This document shows, one piece after another, positions 9,479 to 50,295 of a DNA stretch of 64,000 nucleotides. The notes under the pieces are model-generated. The model ran no database searches. It saw only the letters and a list, made by a program, of their open reading frames with translations, and was not told the origin of the DNA. Made by a program: the position numbers and the translations under genes. How positions within the stretch are numbered: the first letter of the stretch is position 1; every line of letters begins with the position of its first letter. The DNA is from a virus, in IMG/VR virus record IMGVR_UViG_3300035670_000049, positions 32,001 through 96,000 of that record; one strand, written 5' to 3'.

Positions 9479-9546
9479 ACGATGCTAGGTGTTTATTGAA
9501 GTTGCAAAAATGTGCAACCGTTCGACTGACGGTTTGCACCGAACAT

Positions 9547-9765
9547 TTAACGGTAGGCATGACGAGGCTCCGGTGGTGTCAGCCAGCCCAATTCAAGGAA
9601 GGCTTGCATTCGATTGGTGACACTCATCTTCTTATATGCACTATGAATATGATTCTTCACGGTCTGCGGGCTGATCCGAAGATGCTCAGCAATATCATTG
9701 CCCGTATTCCCATTTGCCAGCAGAACGAGAATCTGATACTCTCGTTGCGAGAGATGAAAATTCAC
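9547..9765 (-). CDS. Solo LuxR/GerE-family HTH regulator
   Basis: LSQREYQILVLLANGNTGNDIAEHLRISPQTVKNHIHSAYKKM; GTG start at 9765 overlaps the upstream stop. Confidence 0.85.
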   Translation of the reverse strand: MNFHLSQREYQILVLLANGNTGNDIAEHLRISPQTVKNHIHSAYKKMSVTNRMQAFLELGWLTPPEPRHAYR

Positions 9766-9947
9766 TACCGACAAGCGAGTTTCCTCCGAAGTTTGTTCGC
9801 AGCATTGATTTCTTTCCAGCACTCTCGACAATAGGATTGCCACCCAGAAGTCTTGTGCGGCCCTCTGGGTCGAGCGACATAGAAATACTCCTCTGTCTGC
9901 GGCTTTTCTAGCGCACAGCGAGAACAAAGCCTGAGAATTTCAGACAT
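9765..9947 (-). CDS. Small Zn-finger protein
   Basis: CSRC...K...EYFY...SYCREC, typical phage HNH-associated Zn motif. Confidence 0.65.
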   Translation of the reverse strand: MSEILRLCSRCALEKPQTEEYFYVARPRGPHKTSGWQSYCRECWKEINAANKLRRKLACR

Positions 9948-10084
9948 AAAATCCCCTCTAAACCACGCTTCTCTAATTGGGCCTATTAGATCAAGCGATA
10001 CGTAAATCCTTCCAAATAGAGTGAAACTGAGAAAAACGCCTTTAAATTAGAATACGCCCAAGACTGCTTGGGACGCTTCGGCCA

Positions 10085-10113
10085 AGTGTACCCGATAGGG
10101 GGCTGCTTGTCAA
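10085..10113 (-). promoter_or_regulatory. Sigma70 promoter TTGACA-N17-TACACT (leftward operon)
   Basis: Direct sequence. Confidence 0.8.
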
Positions 10114-10164
10114 GCCCAATTTTGACCTATTTTTGTGGATAACTTCGTTTTTATGAGAGCTAAA

Positions 10165-10208
10165 TTAAGAAACCTTAACTTGACAGAACGCACCACCTCT
10201 GTTAAGGT
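10165..10208 (+). promoter_or_regulatory. Palindromic operator TTAAG-N4-CTTAA abutting promoter TTGACA-N17-TAAGGT
   Basis: Direct sequence; the same operator lies beside the 11.3 and 13.8 kb promoters. Confidence 0.7.
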
Positions 10209-10213
10209 ACATA

Positions 10214-10610
10214 TTGTCAGAGGGGCCAACACCCCAAAGATGCCGGTCTGATGGGATGGGTTGAGAAGCCTTCTTCCCCCAAGGAATTTTTCCTCATTCG
10301 AATGTGGAGAGCATTCTACCGGCAGGGAATTACTGAAACATTGGATAAGGTATTCTCAATTCTTTCGGCCTCACACTCTTAGCGAGAGAAAAACTATTGC
10401 AAGAGTTTTATCTTACTAAGAGAAAGGTTCTGGCCTTCGGGTAGTATTCTCGCATCTGACTCCCGCCCGGTAGGGATGACAGTGGAACGCTGAATATTAC
10501 AAGGAGAAGAAGAAAACCGTTCTTCTCTGCGGCCAGAGGCAGTCACTAACACGAAGATCGTGCCTGTCGAAACTCCCCTTAGTAGAAATGCTAGGGGGAG
10601 TTTTTTTATT
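10214..10610 (+). ncRNA. Putative structured non-coding RNA of unknown family (~350-390 nt)
   Basis: Own promoter and terminator, no ORF >=60 aa, many complementary segments (see findings). Confidence 0.6.
10570..10610 (+). terminator. Rho-independent terminator
   Basis: AAACTCCCCTTAG-loop-CTAGGGGGAGTTT followed by a T-tract. Confidence 0.85.
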
Positions 10611-10847
10611 GCCCAAAAACCCTGTGGCGATTTTCTCCCAATTTTTCTGGTCTAGAGGGTATCTAAAAAACTGGAAAAATTAGTCCCGGTATTTATGTAC
10701 AGTAACAGGCTGCAAACCGGGTGTTAGCGTTTCACTTTTGTGTGAATATAGGGGGGGGCTAATTGAATCTGAGCTAATTGATTGTTTAGGGCCAGGGGAT
10801 GAAACAGAACAATTGAAAGTACAGAATTGAATCTGAAGAATACATGA

Positions 10848-10878
10848 AAGAGCCGATGACTTTCATCATCGGCTCTTG
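10848..10878 (-). terminator. Hairpin terminator after the 10899-11255 gene
   Basis: AAGAGCCGATGA/TCATCGGCTCTT 12-bp stem. Confidence 0.65.
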
Positions 10879-10898
10879 TTTGTTGTTGTTGATCTAAG

Positions 10899-11255
10899 TC
10901 ACCATTCGCCGCTCCGCTGAATCTCTGCAAAGAACATTCTAACCGCAGTGAGCATCTTATCAGCACGCGGGTCCGCGTAGTCAATCATTCGGTCGGCCAA
11001 TTCCATCAGGTCCATCATAAGGTCAATCTGGCGATTCGTGGGCCGGTAGCGCTGATGCAGCACAACATATCCCGGACCATACAGTGACAAGTGAATCCAC
11101 CCGCGCGCCTCTAGATCATTCGGGTCCTCGTGGATGACGAGATAGGCTACATCATGATGACCCATGCTGGGGACGTAGTGCTGGCGGCCAGCAGGATCGA
11201 TCCACGAATCGCACAGGGTCGGCTCTGAAAGAATCTCGCCCGGTTCGTGCTGCAT
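10899..11255 (-). CDS. Hypothetical early protein (monocistronic cassette, GC-rich)
   Basis: RBS, own promoter, 5' hairpin and terminator. Confidence 0.75.
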   Translation of the reverse strand: MQHEPGEILSEPTLCDSWIDPAGRQHYVPSMGHHDVAYLVIHEDPNDLEARGWIHLSLYGPGYVVLHQRYRPTNRQIDLMMDLMELADRMIDYADPRADKMLTAVRMFFAEIQRSGEW

Positions 11256-11299
11256 CTCACTGCTCCTTGCTCTTGCTATCGCCTGTTGGCGATGCCAAG

Positions 11300-11348
11300 A
11301 GCATAATCGATTCGACTACCCTATGTCAACAAAGCTAAGGAATCTTAG
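11300..11348 (-). promoter_or_regulatory. Promoter TTGACA-N18-TATGCT with operator CTAAG-N4-CTTAG upstream
   Basis: Direct sequence. Confidence 0.75.
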
Positions 11349-11636
11349 CTTTGCAAGGTTAGAGCGTTATTGCGTGAAAGCGCAATCGTTGCACATGCAA
11401 CTACCAGGATTGGGCCTTGCCTGTACATACCCTAAACAGAACGGAACATGGAGTATGGTATAACAGAACTGAACGGCAATCGAATTCCTGTACATACACT
11501 ATACACTATAGTACAGTACATCAGTACACATTCATGCGCCCATGAATCAATCTGCGTTCCATTGGCTCAAATCGCAATTATTAAGATTTCTTAATAAAGC
11601 TAAGATATCTTAATCCAGGTTCTCAATGCACATGGT

Positions 11637-11668
11637 GATAGGGCAGGGTTTCTGTGCCCTGCCCTATC
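11637..11668 (-). terminator. Hairpin terminator after the 11681-11956 gene
   Basis: GATAGGGCAGGG/CCCTGCCCTATC 12-bp stem. Confidence 0.65.
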
Positions 11669-11680
11669 CTCTAGACTTGA

Positions 11681-11956
11681 TTACCGATTGCTATCGATCA
11701 CCAGATCGACGTACTCGGTGTACGTCATGCCCTGCGGCAGCACGGGCCGGATTGCGCTGATCTGGGAGAAGAGATCGAGAGCCGCAGTGTACTCGCCACG
11801 CACGATCAATTGATCGTGGAGAAGGTTCGACATGTAGGAATCGACCTTCTCTTCCTTGGTTCCGTTCGACTCCCGAAACAGATCGACTGCCGTGGGGATC
11901 GAATCCACCAGAACCTCGGTGGGGGCGAGCATGAGCCAGAACTCATACCCGTTCAC
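11681..11956 (-). CDS. Hypothetical early protein (monocistronic cassette, GC-rich)
   Basis: Purine-rich leader, own promoter and terminator. Confidence 0.75.
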   Translation of the reverse strand: MNGYEFWLMLAPTEVLVDSIPTAVDLFRESNGTKEEKVDSYMSNLLHDQLIVRGEYTAALDLFSQISAIRPVLPQGMTYTEYVDLVIDSNR

Positions 11957-12026
11957 TTTTCTGCCTTCCTTCTCTTCCTTCGGGATCGGTCCCGATTGCC
12001 TATCAGATCATCGATCTGATGTGATC

Positions 12027-12072
12027 ACTATAGCGAGTAGCACGCTATCTGTCAATAGTACCTTTGTCACAA
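12027..12072 (-). promoter_or_regulatory. Promoter TTGACA-N17-TATAGT with upstream TTGTGAC element
   Basis: Direct sequence. Confidence 0.8.
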
Positions 12073-12458
12073 TCGAAAGTGACCTTTGGGGAAGCTCGGT
12101 GCAGAGCATAAACTCATACCAGCGCACTCATATATCCTAGCCAAAGTCTACTAATCTGGTAGACTTACCAAGGGATTGCGGGCATGGGCTAATCATATAC
12201 TATATCACTAGTATATAAACAGGAACAGGAATGAAATACTAATCTAAACAGTATTCGATTGTATATCCTATGCGCCCCATTCATAGTCGAGTATCCATTG
12301 GCTTGCGTGTCAATTCTGATCGCCGCTCCATTGGCTCAAAGCTAAGATTTCTTTATTTAGCTAAGATTTCTTTATCCAGGATTAGAACTGAACGGATATT
12401 CTAATTCAATTCGGTATCTTTATTCGCCAGCGAATTAGCAGGGACTAAGGGAATTAGA

Positions 12459-12839
12459 TTACTTGGACTTGGCGGGCTTCTCGGGCTCGGGCTCGATAAC
12501 CTCGGGCTCGGGCTCGGGATTCCGCAGGGCTTCCAACTCTGCCGCGATGCTATCCGCATCGAGTCCCTGCGCAGCGGTCCGTCCGCGCTTCCCCTCGGGA
12601 AGTGTGAGCGTCCCTGCATTCAGGTCGAGTGCGAATCCATCCGCCAGCGCATCGGACTTGTCAATGTTCTTGGACGGGATCGAGAGTTTATCCTTGCGGA
12701 TCACCTTGCCATCCGCATCGGTTTCGGTGGAGTAGAAAACTCCGCTGACCGTGTAGAGGCGCTCGGGATTCCGCTCGGCGGTCTTGCCCGTGGGGCGGGT
12801 GACTCGCATCCGCTCCACCAGATAGGTGACTAGTGCCAT
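12459..12839 (-). CDS. Early protein A (LTLPEGKRGRT family, acidic PE-repeat tail)
   Basis: RBS AAGGGAG; clear paralog of 13354-13647; flanked by inverted repeats. Confidence 0.8.
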   Translation of the reverse strand: MALVTYLVERMRVTRPTGKTAERNPERLYTVSGVFYSTETDADGKVIRKDKLSIPSKNIDKSDALADGFALDLNAGTLTLPEGKRGRTAAQGLDADSIAAELEALRNPEPEPEVIEPEPEKPAKSK

Positions 12840-13353
12840 TGTAGGCTCCCTTCGGCTAGTCCCCTAGTCCCTGCTATTCACTTGGTAAGGTGCTGGCCGG
12901 TGGTTCCATGTCCATCCGACATACAGAACTATATCCTCCGCGTAAAAAACTCGATAGAGCCATAGGTCCCAAAACTTTGTGACCTTTGGCCCTTGACAAG
13001 CGACGAGCTTTGTGCTAGGGGGGCCAGGTTGCGTGGTTGCGCAAGTACGCAATTGTTGCATGCGCAGCTAACTACCCCCACCCTCCATTGGCTTCCCTCC
13101 CCCATGTGGATATATAAGTGAATCAGTATACTTATATAGAACTGGATGTAATATGAAATCCAATAGTATAACAGTAACTGGATTGAAATTCAAATTCGAT
13201 TATAGAACACATCAAATTATGTAATGCGTAACATAAATGATACGTACTCCATTGGCTCAACATTAAGAACAGGTTAAGAATTCTTAATCAAATATTAATA
13301 TATAAGTGAATTAGTAATGTTAAGAGGAGAAGCGAGAGTTTAAGTTAGAGAAT

Positions 13354-13647
13354 TTACTCCTTGCGCAAAGAATTCAATTCCTTTGCGATATCGTCTGCGG
13401 TTAGGCTAGCCATTGCGGTTCGGCCCCGCTTACCTTCAGTAAGAGTAAGAATACCCTTATTGATATCGATAACCGTAGCCTTATCGCGTGCTTCATCGAA
13501 AGTAATTACCTTCGATGTGATGCTAAGCGGCTGCCCCTTATCGTTAGCAAAGACCCCGAAGATTGTGCAAAACCTATCGGGATGCTTTTCGGCCATCTTG
13601 TCGGATGGCTTAACGACGCGCATCTTGGCGATATGGTAGGTCGGCAT
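13354..13647 (-). CDS. Early protein B (LTLTEGKRGRT family)
   Basis: RBS AGGAGGTG before ATG 13647; paralog of 12459-12839; flanked by inverted repeats. Confidence 0.8.
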   Translation of the reverse strand: MPTYHIAKMRVVKPSDKMAEKHPDRFCTIFGVFANDKGQPLSITSKVITFDEARDKATVIDINKGILTLTEGKRGRTAMASLTADDIAKELNSLRKE

Positions 13648-13765
13648 ATTTATCACCTCCTTTCATCACAGGTCATGTCCTGTGTTAGTCAGACGGTGTA
13701 AATTCTCGCCTCTCGCTCTCGCTTCTCTTCTCTTATCTCACCGCCTCCTTGCCGGTGGCAAAGCC

Positions 13766-13813
13766 ACTATACAACCTGAAGAGTCAATTGTCAAGCATGT
13801 TAAGGTTTCTTAA
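13766..13813 (-). promoter_or_regulatory. Promoter TTGACA-N17-TATAGT with operator TTAAG-N4-CTTAA upstream
   Basis: Direct sequence. Confidence 0.8.
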
Positions 13814-26591: not shown

Positions 26592-26891
26592 TTAGGGTTA
26601 TTGCTTATCCCGACAAGCATTTATATAGCGACAACTTTCTTCCGCTTCTCTTGCCCCTATCCCAGCCATTTCTCATGGCAGTAGTCGATAGACTTCTTAT
26701 ATGATGGAGTTACCCTAATCCTACCAATTGGAGGATGTATAGGCATCATATAAGTTGGGACACTCACCCAACCTTCGGCAAGAGTATTGCGCTATTTATT
26801 TAGGCCATTCCTAGCCTCATTGTAGCACATATCACAGGATAAAGCAATAAATGTTTTGTGATTTGTGCTACCATGAAACTATGAGCGGTAA

Positions 26892-27137
26892 TTACTCTAC
26901 TTTGAACTTATCACCGACGCGAGTAATATTTAGATAGAAGCGTCGATCCCTAGCAGGATCAGGACCAACCACAAACACCATCTTATTCTCAGGCATTTCT
27001 GTAATTGGTCCATCATACTCATTACCAAAGAAGGAAGTTGCCTCCAAAGAAACACCTTCTGGATTAGAGGCAATTGCCTCCTTTACAGCCTTCTTTGATT
27101 TAGGACGATTCCAGTTTACCCAAATTCCTTGAGTCAC
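26892..27137 (-). CDS. Hypothetical phage protein
   Basis: RPKSKKA.KE...LEATSFFG...VVGPDP; GTG start after GAGGAG. Confidence 0.7.
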   Translation of the reverse strand: MTQGIWVNWNRPKSKKAVKEAIASNPEGVSLEATSFFGNEYDGPITEMPENKMVFVVGPDPARDRRFYLNITRVGDKFKVE

Positions 27138-28580: not shown

Positions 28581-28793
28581 TTACCAATCCTTCATATCAG
28601 CAAGGTGATTGCTATAAGCGATGACCGACTTCCAACCATCTGGATCGGTCTGCTTTAGATAACTTAAAATCTCCTGATACTGTGTGCTAAATTCGTACTT
28701 AGCCTCATCAGAATCAAAAGAACCAAATCTGAGAACATTTGCCATATATTTGGCAACATTCACATAATTTGGTGTAAGTACAATCGTTTCCAT
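28581..28793 (-). CDS. Hypothetical protein
   Basis: Coupled ORF. Confidence 0.6.
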   Translation of the reverse strand: METIVLTPNYVNVAKYMANVLRFGSFDSDEAKYEFSTQYQEILSYLKQTDPDGWKSVIAYSNHLADMKDW

Positions 28794-29134
28794 TATCTAA
28801 TTACTCCCTTGAAATGATCCCTAGCATCAACAACTTGATAACCATATGGGAGATTTTTGAATGTCATTGCCATTCTAAGTTTGGCGATAGGATTGGATGT
28901 ATGAATAAAGAAGAAATCAACATCAACTGTTGTATTATCTTCAAAATACATCCGCTCTAGTTCTTTTACTAAATCGTATCCTTCCCTTTCTGCGTAATCA
29001 TCAAGATCATTATCTAGCCAAACTTGATCCCAATGCCCATCTACAAGTTTTTCACAAGCAGTATCGAAATCCCTGGCATATACGGCATCAAATTTAGCGA
29101 TGCGAAGATCATCAATCACTAGTTGTCTCATCAT
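28793..29134 (-). CDS. Cyclic-phosphate-processing receiver-domain-like protein
   Basis: LVIDDLR...VWLDNDL...GYD.V...IHTSNP..K..M matches the LDD.R/LDHDLG/GYD/HSANP pattern. Confidence 0.75.
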   Translation of the reverse strand: MMRQLVIDDLRIAKFDAVYARDFDTACEKLVDGHWDQVWLDNDLDDYAEREGYDLVKELERMYFEDNTTVDVDFFFIHTSNPIAKLRMAMTFKNLPYGYQVVDARDHFKGVIR

Positions 29135-30830: not shown

Positions 30831-31433
30831 ATGGCTAAGGCTACAAATGGTCAGGCTGAGAATACTCGGTCTGCCACAATCACTGTTGGCGTTGAGAATG
30901 GTGCAGGAAATGCCGTTCTTGCCGCATGGCAGGGAATTTACCACCTATTCGGTGGGCGCGGAAACTTTGAGATTACACCCGATGGTGTGATTGTCAATGA
31001 TTTCAGCGTTGATGGGAAGTATGATCCTGAGCAGATTGCTAAGGATATCTCTCATCGCAATAGGCGACTTGATCTTGTTCCCACTTATCTGTGGGTACAG
31101 GGCATGGAGCCTGAGCCCTTTGCAGATGCCAAGGAAATGACCCAGTTTATGGTTCAGTATTTCCGGGGCTCTGTTGAGGAAGGTTCTTCTCGCTCTCCTA
31201 AGTACGTTAGGGATGCGGTTGCAACCTTTAAGGCAAGCCACAATCTTGCCAAAAAGCGTGGGCCTCGCAAGAAGATTTTCCGTGTGGATAATCTTAGCGA
31301 GATTGACGAGAATACTCTCGTTGGAGTTAATGCATCCGAACTCTCCAAACTCCGCGATGCAATTGAGAAGGCTCTTGCGACTGCTGCCACGAATACTAGT
31401 GGGGAGTCGCAGGAAGCCCCCGCTACAGTTTAA
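30831..31433 (+). CDS. Early protein C (200 aa, KKRGPRK motif), ORF enclosed by a 30-bp RNA stem
   Basis: RBS GAAAGGA; first gene of the rightward array. Confidence 0.85.
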   Translation: MAKATNGQAENTRSATITVGVENGAGNAVLAAWQGIYHLFGGRGNFEITPDGVIVNDFSVDGKYDPEQIAKDISHRNRRLDLVPTYLWVQGMEPEPFADAKEMTQFMVQYFRGSVEEGSSRSPKYVRDAVATFKASHNLAKKRGPRKKIFRVDNLSEIDENTLVGVNASELSKLRDAIEKALATAATNTSGESQEAPATV

Positions 31434-31505
31434 GTATCTGCTAACTAATCTCAACGATTATATTCGGTTGTTTCCAATTTCATCATACACTTTTAAGGGA
31501 ATACA

Positions 31506-31781
31506 ATGGCTGCACAGAGAATTCGTCATGCAAAATCTGTTCGTGAGGCAGAACAGATGCGTGACGAATTTATTACGCTTGGATACAAGGTAGAATCCTC
31601 TGGAGAGAATACTACCATCGTAAAGAAAACTTCTTGGGGCTCTGTTTCAGGGCATTTGCTAGTAGCCCTTTTTACCGTTTGGTGGACACTAGGGCTTGGA
31701 AATCTTGCTTATGCGCTAATTGCGCATAAGTCAGACGAGGTTCTAATCAAAACTGATGAGGAAGCGCTAACAACTTCTTAA
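31506..31781 (+). CDS. Small membrane protein
   Basis: WGSVSGHLLVALFTVWWTLGLGNLAYA. Confidence 0.7.
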   Translation: MAAQRIRHAKSVREAEQMRDEFITLGYKVESSGENTTIVKKTSWGSVSGHLLVALFTVWWTLGLGNLAYALIAHKSDEVLIKTDEEALTTS

Positions 31782-31802
31782 GTGTTGCGCCTTTTATCCT
31801 AA

Positions 31803-31852
31803 AGGGGCTAGTTAATCCAAGGGCAAGGATTGGCTAGCCCTTTTTATTTCTT
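31803..31852 (+). terminator. Rho-independent terminator
   Basis: AAGGGGCTAGTTAATCC/GGATTGGCTAGCCCTT + T-tract. Confidence 0.75.
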
Positions 31853-32051
31853 TTTAAGGACAATAATTGTGGAAGATGTAATAGAATTTACTATTCTTTC
31901 GAGAAAGGCACATAAAGCGAAGAAGGAACATATTTGTCACGCTTGTAAACAGCCTATTATGCCCGGAGAGAAGTACCTTAAAGAAGTAGCTATTATTGAT
32001 GGAGACTTTAAAGAAATTAAATCTCATAGGAGCGAACCTTATTTTGAGTAA
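31830..32051 (+). CDS. Small Zn-binding protein (true start ~31870)
   Basis: KAKKEHICHACKQPIMPGEKY. Confidence 0.6.
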   Translation: MASPFYFFLRTIIVEDVIEFTILSRKAHKAKKEHICHACKQPIMPGEKYLKEVAIIDGDFKEIKSHRSEPYFE

Positions 32052-49516: not shown

Positions 49517-49838
49517 TCTCTTTCCTACTCCTTTCTTTGGCGGCTTCTATGTCAGATAGATACGACTCATCCTGTTCATCTTGTTGCTCTACCTCTTTCC
49601 ACTTATTTTTAGCAACAGCAATGACATACGAAAGAGGATCACCTGTCAAGTCTCTTTCAGATGATTCCACTATTGCTTCAAACATAGGCCAGAAGCCATA
49701 ATTATTAAGCGCCCGATAAAACCTTGGAATAGAAGAGGCTGGCGTCCCAAGTAACTCTTGGTAAAACGCCAGCCATGTCTTCTTTGTCCCACGGTTCAAA
49801 TCAAAGCGCCAACGACTTAGCGGCTTTGATTGTTCCAT
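49479..49838 (-). CDS. Hypothetical protein (possible replication initiator/loader)
   Basis: Helical; near dnaB (position-based inference). Confidence 0.5.
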   Translation of the reverse strand: MEQSKPLSRWRFDLNRGTKKTWLAFYQELLGTPASSIPRFYRALNNYGFWPMFEAIVESSERDLTGDPLSYVIAVAKNKWKEVEQQDEQDESYLSDIEAAKERSRKENEELAARLKSLQ

Positions 49839-49845
49839 ATTGACC

Positions 49846-50295
49846 TCAACTTAATATCGTAGACAGTAACCATGAGGGCTTTGGGTTGCTAGATTTTACT
49901 CCAAGTATCTCAAGAGCCTTGTTCAACTTATCATCCCAATCAGGATCGACTGCTAAATCATCGGGGATGATAGGAACAGGTTCTCCCTGATAGGCTCTAT
50001 AAGTTTTAGCGGATAGAATATAACCCGGATAATCGTAGGAGCAGTAGTAGATAATCTCTAAGCCTAACTTCTTCTCTGCTTCCCTTAATCGCTCATAAAA
50101 GCCTTCTCCATCATTCTCTTTCCAAGTTTCAGTAAAGCCTATCATTTCTCTTACGAGATAATGTTCAGCAAACTCACCGAATCCTTCACCTTCCTCGTTG
50201 TCAGAGTCCCACCATTCGGGAAACTCAAATTCAATAGATTCCTCTAATCCAAGATCATATCCATACGCTAGAAGGCCATCCCAATCAAGTCCCAT
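49846..50295 (-). CDS. Acidic hypothetical protein
   Basis: In operon. Confidence 0.65.
   Translation of the reverse strand: MGLDWDGLLAYGYDLGLEESIEFEFPEWWDSDNEEGEGFGEFAEHYLVREMIGFTETWKENDGEGFYERLREAEKKLGLEIIYYCSYDYPGYILSAKTYRAYQGEPVPIIPDDLAVDPDWDDKLNKALEILGVKSSNPKPSWLLSTILS

Follow-up and report, generated by a model that had tools for sequence, protein, structure and literature searches.

An orphan candidate non-coding RNA gene in the early region of an uncultivated tRNA-rich phage

Phage RNAs comparable to the locus

To our knowledge, none of the structured RNAs GOLLD, ROOL and manA that phages carry has a known function. GOLLD and ROOL frequently occur in phages or prophages that have tRNA genes. 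The pRNA of phage phi29, an RNA of ~170 nt, is driven by an early promoter and multimerises by loop-loop contacts. Among the small RNAs of bacteria and phages, terminator-ended RNAs processed from a longer transcript form a known class. GOLLD, ROOL and OLE have been described as homo-oligomers (PMC12286853), and for manA, originally described as a 5′-UTR element (PMC2864571), a recent report describes decamers and 60-mer cages (bioRxiv 10.64898/2026.07.01.735769).

Here we describe a transcription unit of an uncultivated phage whose product resembles these RNAs in part. The source record is a 120,336-bp IMG/VR virus with direct terminal repeats, of which the analysed stretch of 64,000 nucleotides (the window) comprises bases 32001-96000. 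The first 31 kb of the genome hold 26 tRNA genes, the window holds neither a tRNA nor a tmRNA gene according to ARAGORN, and the tRNA gene closest to the unit lies ~11 kb away. The unit is surrounded by small monocistronic cassettes in a gene-sparse, early-type region, and downstream of its terminator no gene lies on its own strand. Moderate evidence points to an orphan candidate ncRNA. Our preferred reading, to which we give an even chance, is that the unit is an independently transcribed, non-protein-coding, operator-controlled early gene of an orphan family. Probably, the product represents a new family of small phage RNAs and not a large ornate RNA, because signs of folding and abundance in environmental RNA are confined to its last 200 bases.

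The RNA of the window is phage-borne and without known function like manA (RF01745), and the related phage G001 has a sub-threshold manA-like domain in its syntenic unit. It differs from manA by lacking the conserved 3′ hairpin (UGUGGGUA...AAUCCCAC) and the closing pseudoknot, and whereas manA is a 5′-UTR element, the unit ends in a terminator with no downstream gene on the same strand. With GOLLD, ROOL and OLE it shares the likely character of a stand-alone ncRNA, in a phage that is itself rich in tRNA genes. However, its 390 nt compare with about 580-800 nt in GOLLD and ROOL, it has no covariance-model match and it is weakly folded outside its 3′ half. A palindromic loop recalls the pRNA of phi29 (RF00044), but the RNA has no Rfam match, belongs to a tRNA-rich genome of 120 kb and shows no link to packaging genes. 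The processed small RNAs are resembled in the own promoter, the intrinsic terminator with its U-tail, an apparent 5′ end that lies internally, in a hairpin loop, and a 3′ product of ~200 nt that is abundant. With ~200 nt and a branched domain, this product is nevertheless larger than most base-pairing sRNAs, and searches for antisense or seed-target pairing inside the phage genome stayed at chance level.

Promoter, coding potential and family searches

The unit has its own promoter and its own terminator, as a stand-alone phage ncRNA gene should (Table 1). Both had been proposed in the first-pass annotation, and the promoter as well as the strong terminator lie where they were supposed. The promoter register is kept in three phages, with TTGACG-N17-TATAGT in G001 and TTGACG-N17-TACAGT in G002 aligning base for base with that of the window. 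The -10 box agrees with the consensus at only three of six positions (T1, A2 and T6), and for this reason a consensus scan missed the promoter. Transcription would be expected to start at about 10213-10216.

Table 1 Features of the unit, its neighbours and the syntenic units of two related phages (window positions unless another record is named).
Feature	Position	Strand	Remark
HTH gene	9547-9822	-	upstream of the unit, divergent; GerE/sigma-70-region-4-type matches
Zn-ribbon gene, 60 aa	9765-9947	-	upstream of the unit, divergent; homologues in related phages
Operator-like palindrome TTAAGAAACCTTAA	10165-10178	.	ends 1 nt before the -35 box
Sigma-70-type promoter TTGACA-N17-TAAGGT	10180-10208	+	-35 TTGACA 10180-10185, 17-nt spacer, -10 TAAGGT 10203-10208; read from sequence
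Primary transcript, ~394 nt	10214-10607	+	predicted, promoter to terminator
5′ part	10214-10375	+	holds the 43-aa ORF; z=-0.9, fold no better than chance
Longest ATG ORF, 43 aa	10251-10382	+	a TTG ORF of 52 aa is also there
Hairpin II, 17 bp with bulges, 8-nt loop AUUGCAAG	10376-10422	+	z=-4.7
Domain III, closing helix UUCUGGCC/GGCCAGAG	10426-10540	+	MFE and centroid agree
Arm IIIa of domain III	10441-10500	+	MFE, centroid
Arm IIIb of domain III	10503-10528	+	MFE, centroid
Small hairpin IV, CACG-AAGAU-CGUG	10550-10562	+	MFE
Intrinsic terminator	10569-10607	+	stem-loop 10569-10604, 16-bp stem, GAAA loop, then U-run; sequence scan
Orphan gene, 118 aa	10899-11255	-	downstream of the unit
Syntenic unit of G001, 554 nt, ORF-poor	L003 925-1478 = G001 90,625-91,178	-	promoter to large terminator
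Syntenic unit of G002, 598 nt, ORF-poor	L017 2105-2702 = G002 86,325-86,922	-	promoter to large terminator

Next to the promoter lies an operator-like palindrome, and G001 carries TTAAGGAACCTTAA at the equivalent position. The 64-kb window contains six TAAG-N4-CTTA sites, where 1.5 are expected, and all of them fall inside a 3.6-kb early region (10166-13812), several immediately before a TTGACA box on one strand or the other. Judged from the sequence, these six palindromes are a candidate operator set, and the HTH protein encoded just upstream would be an obvious candidate for their binder. The operator gating that had been proposed for the unit appears plausible, since the palindrome adjoins its promoter and is common to neighbouring early promoters. 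The region of the divergent genes (9547-9947, - strand) contains three overlapping ORFs, for which other pipelines chose a 61-aa frame (9695-9880) instead; a 126-aa TTG ORF there is probably an over-extension. In G001, the HTH part is missing between the two homologous genes. Directly after the terminator of the unit, a second promoter-like box (TCTAAAAAACTGGAAAAATT...TGTACAGT) lies in the stretch 10640-10885 (+). It is found in all three phages, with three copies in G002, and ~180 nt beyond it lies another terminator (10848-10877). A second small transcript may come from this stretch, whose fold (z=-2.5) is largely due to its terminator.

As noted in the first-pass annotation, the longest ORF encodes 43 aa if ATG starts are considered, while a TTG start gives 52 aa. 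No Pfam or PHROG match was obtained for eight stop-to-stop frames on both strands. An 85-aa open frame of the - strand had 0 homologues among 5.8 billion clusters, and the 43-aa ORF had no credible homologue among 1.84 billion representatives, where its two weak matches (E about 5e-4) were each split into several stretches. Gene callers predicted nothing in the unit on three further contigs of this phage. The codon score of the 43-aa ORF (0.084) exceeds that of 94% of 116 spurious ORFs and lies within the range of neighbouring small early genes. There is no SD upstream of the ATG at 10251, which is weak evidence against translation because an SD-like 4-mer is present in only 38-50% of the long ORFs of this phage. 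Conservation of the ORF had been named as an observation that would speak for a protein instead of a structured RNA, and a natural variant with a roughly 96%-identical sequence, found in the DNA run X4, bears on this. In this single variant both substitutions in the ORF (10343 and 10379) are third-position and synonymous and both indel pairs restore the frame, yet the stop codon is changed from TAG to TAT, lengthening the frame to 79 codons. A recoding of TAG was considered and rejected, as 20 of 115 long ORFs end with TAG, which is thus an ordinary stop. No ORF corresponding to the 43-aa ORF exists in the syntenic units of G001 and G002.

The search for known RNA families with Infernal cmscan bore out the impression that none is matched. 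Against Rfam 15 (4227 families), the whole 64-kb window gave 0 matches at gathering score, and 9950-10900 gave only terminator-like chance matches at E<=10. Covariance models or ARAGORN found no tmRNA, RNase P, 6S, SRP or group I/II intron, and there was no covariance-model match to GOLLD, ROOL, OLE, raiA, HEARO or other large Rfam ncRNAs. The manA model (gathering score 55.2 bits) remained unmatched in the window, in 9950-10900 at E<=10 and in all of G000, and no self-cleaving ribozyme (hammerhead, twister, pistol, hatchet, HDV-like) was listed on 9950-10900 at E<=10. Because these covariance-model tests are negative, the RNA is placed outside manA, GOLLD, ROOL, OLE, pRNA, 6S, tmRNA, RNase P, introns and known ribozymes.

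The search for homologues of the unit returned no diverged homologue, just identical copies and the X4 variant. The unit was unmatched by blastn in phage and plasmid collections. An exact 24-mer scan of viral contigs and a 22-mer scan of genome contigs found nothing, and the only match of a 22-mer scan of metagenome contigs was a chance match inside a coding gene. Exact-protein look-ups led only to 100%-identical copies or to a contig that ended before the RNA. The unit recurs with 100% identity in the other assemblies found, a JGI metagenome contig and a Logan contig (L056 and L057).

Fold, RNA contigs and natural variation

The region 10210-10610 (401 nt) folds with z=-5.0 on the + strand and -2.8 on the - strand. 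The value of -5.0 depends on the terminator. Once the terminator is removed (10214-10566), z is -2.3, and since 18 random 400-nt segments of the three phages gave a background of z=-1.24±0.92, the body without terminator is therefore only ~1 SD from background. Besides hairpin II itself, only the 3′ half starting with it (10376-10566, z=-3.8) beats chance; domain III and hairpin IV alone reach z=-2.3. The same division is seen in a composition-corrected genome scan with 200-nt windows, where those starting at 10401 and 10501 on the + strand rank 22nd and 7th of 2404, while those at 10201 and 10301 are ordinary. Complementary 6-mers are enriched over shuffled sequences (40 vs 25±6, p about 0.013), and without the terminator the counts are 27 vs 19±6 (p about 0.11). 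All 13 complementary pairs listed in the first-pass annotation are found in their places, most of them within the MFE fold. Of the large structured ncRNA that had been derived from them, hairpin II and the 3′ half stand, but the 5′ ~160 nt do not fold better than chance and the body as a whole stays near background. A globular RNA of 390 nt of the GOLLD/ROOL type is not borne out, with the 5′ ~160 nt at background, the body within ~1 SD of it and RNA contigs over the 3′ half only. The loop AUUGCAAG of hairpin II includes the 6-nt palindrome UUGCAA.

Parts of 10000-10900 were found in 20 runs of ten studies from the subsurface, freshwater sediment and wetland, and the contigs of four of these runs were compared over 9500-11500. 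Two of the four are sediment metatranscriptomes. One gave an RNA contig at 10405-10562 with the genotype of the window (X10, depth 4.4), the other a contig at 10404-10578 with the genotype of X4 (X11, depth 39.3), and within 9500-11500 the two RNA runs had no other RNA contigs. The transcript that had been called for may be represented over 10404-10578, in its 3′ half, by search-selected contigs of one study which show neither the strand nor the true ends of the RNA. The stretch 10214-10403 and the flanks are free of RNA contigs, but such gaps carry no evidential weight. The starts of the two contigs differ by 1 nt despite the different genotypes, and the place is not one at which a k-mer bubble of the two variants would break a contig. 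Upstream of 10404 there is no adequate internal promoter, the best candidate being CTCACA-N17-ACTATT with 7 of 12 matches. This is a hint that 10404/5 is a real RNA 5′ end, arising where the loop of hairpin II is cleaved. The contigs suggest a stable 3′ RNA of ~200 nt; alternatively, a mere decay intermediate could be abundant because a terminator protects it.

The X4 variant changes little around the promoter and the 5′ part, with two changes in 10000-10261 and a single one between 10160 and 10378, against 8-11% divergence of the flanking genes. Its changes cluster in 10379-10388 and 10409-10416, the two arms of hairpin II, whereas the loop AUUGCAAG is unchanged. The region of domain III is 100% identical in all contigs covering it (X5 10386-10536, X10 10405-10562, X11 10417-10578). 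The calculated MFE of hairpin II is -14.9 kcal/mol for the original and -11.5 kcal/mol for the full variant with both arms changed. Combining the 5′ arm of the variant with the original 3′ arm gives -6.9 kcal/mol, and the reverse combination gives -12.9 kcal/mol. Among random mutation sets of the same size, 25% are as stable as the variant hairpin. The variant thus still folds, and the values are consistent with compensation, but this is not significant and remains suggestive only.

Following the preferred reading of an independently transcribed small RNA, a host-type promoter flanked by the TAAG-N4-CTTA palindrome would drive a transcript of ~394 nt up to the strong intrinsic terminator. We infer the + strand to be the one present in the RNA contigs. 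An endonucleolytic cut of the primary transcript in the loop of hairpin II (10404/5) would then free the 3′ portion. The stable, conserved and functional part would be these 3′ ~200 nt, consisting of the loop of hairpin II, the branched domain III, hairpin IV and the terminator. With low confidence, we propose that this RNA acts in trans at an early stage of infection; a protein of the host or the phage, bound or titrated by the RNA, would be one putative target.

The slot in related phages and the competing readings

Two further genomes with direct terminal repeats contain a comparable unit. G001 (119,870 bp) was reached via the helicase with 81% amino acid identity, and G002 (114,680 bp) via an alignment of the Zn-ribbon protein, which also led to the partial G003, where the slot is absent. 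Otherwise this alignment led only to unrelated loci, and genome contigs gave nothing. The three complete genomes (G000, G001 and G002) are collinear and ~70% identical across 40-50% of their length, with 25-28 tRNA genes each. Promoter, operator position and the sequence after the terminator, including the downstream promoter-like boxes, are kept in G001 and G002, which likewise place an ORF-poor unit there. Homology among the three phages ends at the -10 box or transcription start and restarts at or just past the terminator. The break is thus confined to the transcribed body, which argues that the cargo was replaced and the slot was kept. The three bodies cannot be aligned by blastn or nhmmer, and a covariance model of the 3′ half of the window RNA (R1) finds nothing in G001 or G002; the three slot RNAs are therefore not detectably homologous.

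The RNAs of the relatives are far more structured than that of the window, which is the least structured of the three. Their bodies without terminator have z=-8.4 (G001) and -7.7 (G002) in sense and -4.1 and -4.6 in antisense direction, far outside the background. At full length, sense and antisense values are -9.05 vs -5.75 for G001 and -9.24 vs -4.27 for G002, so that in three of three phages the strand in promoter sense folds better than its antisense. The G001 unit contains a sub-threshold manA-like domain (34.2 bits vs a gathering score of 55.2, E about 4e-7) that is absent from G000 and G002, and neither the G001 nor the G002 unit reaches any Rfam gathering score. An RNAalifold comparison of G001 with G002 is informative only at the terminator, the alignment being poor elsewhere. 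What the two RNAs have in common is limited to an unusual nested terminator and a 3′ module in which ACCUAACUKAAUA is followed by a hairpin and then by GCUGAUCC. Pattern searches with this 3′ motif and with the downstream box returned chance matches only.

The readings that compete with a small RNA gene differ in what they take to be functional. The unit could be the mRNA of a small protein, of 43 aa here and 79 aa in the variant, whose structured 3′ UTR would consist of hairpin II, domain III and the terminator and may itself yield a 3′-UTR-derived RNA. The ORF coincides exactly with the 5′ part that has no significant fold, and the codon score, the synonymous substitutions and frame-restoring indel pairs of X4 and the low weight of a missing SD all agree with translation. 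However, we regard this as unlikely: the ORF lacks an SD, a credible homologue and a Pfam or PHROG match, it is uncalled on the three other contigs of the phage, and the syntenic units of G001 and G002 have no counterpart of it. Moreover, the change from TAG to TAT would almost double the length of the protein in a phage that uses TAG as an ordinary stop, and the abundant RNA of the variant starts at 10404, within the extended ORF. A rather improbable reading is that of a functionless remnant, left when an ancestral structured RNA was replaced. Promoter and terminator would then enclose filler or serve as a transcriptional insulator between divergent early genes, and the RNA contigs would represent a decay fragment protected by the terminator. 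It would account for the transcribed body being the only part of the slot that is wholly different among three otherwise collinear phages, for its being much less structured than the bodies of the relatives and for the non-significant compensation test of hairpin II. It agrees poorly with the complete identity of the unit in other assemblies, with the single change of the X4-type relative in 10160-10378 next to flanking genes that diverge by 8-11%, with an RNA depth of 39 where the flanks have no RNA contig, and with the maintenance of operator and promoter.

The view of the first-pass annotation, that the whole ~390 nt are one globular, pseudoknotted ncRNA of the kind of GOLLD, ROOL or manA and possibly self-assembling or catalytic, appears very unlikely for the window. 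It draws its appeal from the relatives, namely from the z values of the 554- and 598-nt slot RNAs without their terminators and from the manA-like domain of G001, below gathering score as it is, in light of the reported decamers and 60-mer cages of manA. In the window itself, the palindromic loop of hairpin II and CCGG in three other predicted unpaired segments are elements of the kissing-contact type, and the 7-bp pair TGCCGGT/ACCGGCA, which would cross other helices, is present. On the other side, about six perfect 7-mer complements are expected by chance in the unit, the 5′ domain and the body without terminator stay close to background, Rfam gives no match at E<=10 and manA none in G000. 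The covariance model of the 3′ half is likewise unmatched in G001 and G002, and only the 3′ half is covered by RNA contigs. A reading that concerns the clade and not the single RNA is possible, though we consider it doubtful. It holds that phages of ~115-120 kb rich in tRNA genes have a conserved operator-controlled early RNA slot whose cargo is swapped wholesale, as is known of protein morons. Its cargoes would be a 554-nt RNA whose manA-like domain may form cages, an unrelated 598-nt RNA and a 394-nt transcript processed to ~200 nt.

On the preferred reading of a small RNA gene, the RNA of the window is an ordinary-looking orphan small RNA, and it is of interest chiefly because it leads to the slot and to the RNAs of the relatives. 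The main novelty is the conserved slot with interchangeable cargoes together with two very highly structured RNAs in the relatives. The neighbourhood of the unit matters because manA RNAs are reported to form cages, GOLLD, ROOL and OLE form homo-oligomers and a manA-like domain occupies the slot of a sister phage. The locus is a compact, regulated setting, in which a single early promoter with an operator and a single terminator frame a different RNA cargo in each of three collinear phages, and as some RNAs of the GOLLD, ROOL and manA type are now solved as multimeric cages, it offers a setting for the question of their function. If the cargoes were functional analogues, such as self-assembling RNAs or decoys for host factors, large phage ncRNAs would here have replaced one another in nature without being homologous. 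The slot would then be a defined genetic context in which the roles of manA-, ROOL- and GOLLD-type RNAs could be tested.

Some observations concern other loci. ARAGORN lists suppressor-type tRNAs with the anticodons CUA and UCA in G001 (11,938-12,011 and 108,688-108,757) and none in G000. The unrelated viral contig L020 contains two group I introns (1396-1575 and 2549-2762 on the + strand, 77.8 and 36.6 bits) just upstream of a distant Zn-ribbon homologue, which suggests that the Zn-ribbon fold is common to proteins of the homing-endonuclease type. In the window, other 200-nt segments that rank among the best-folding of the genome lie at about 26601-26900, 28601-28800, 30901-31200, 31501-31900 and 49601-49900 (composition-corrected z -3.3 to -4.3), several of which are strong on both strands, as terminators or DNA palindromes would be.
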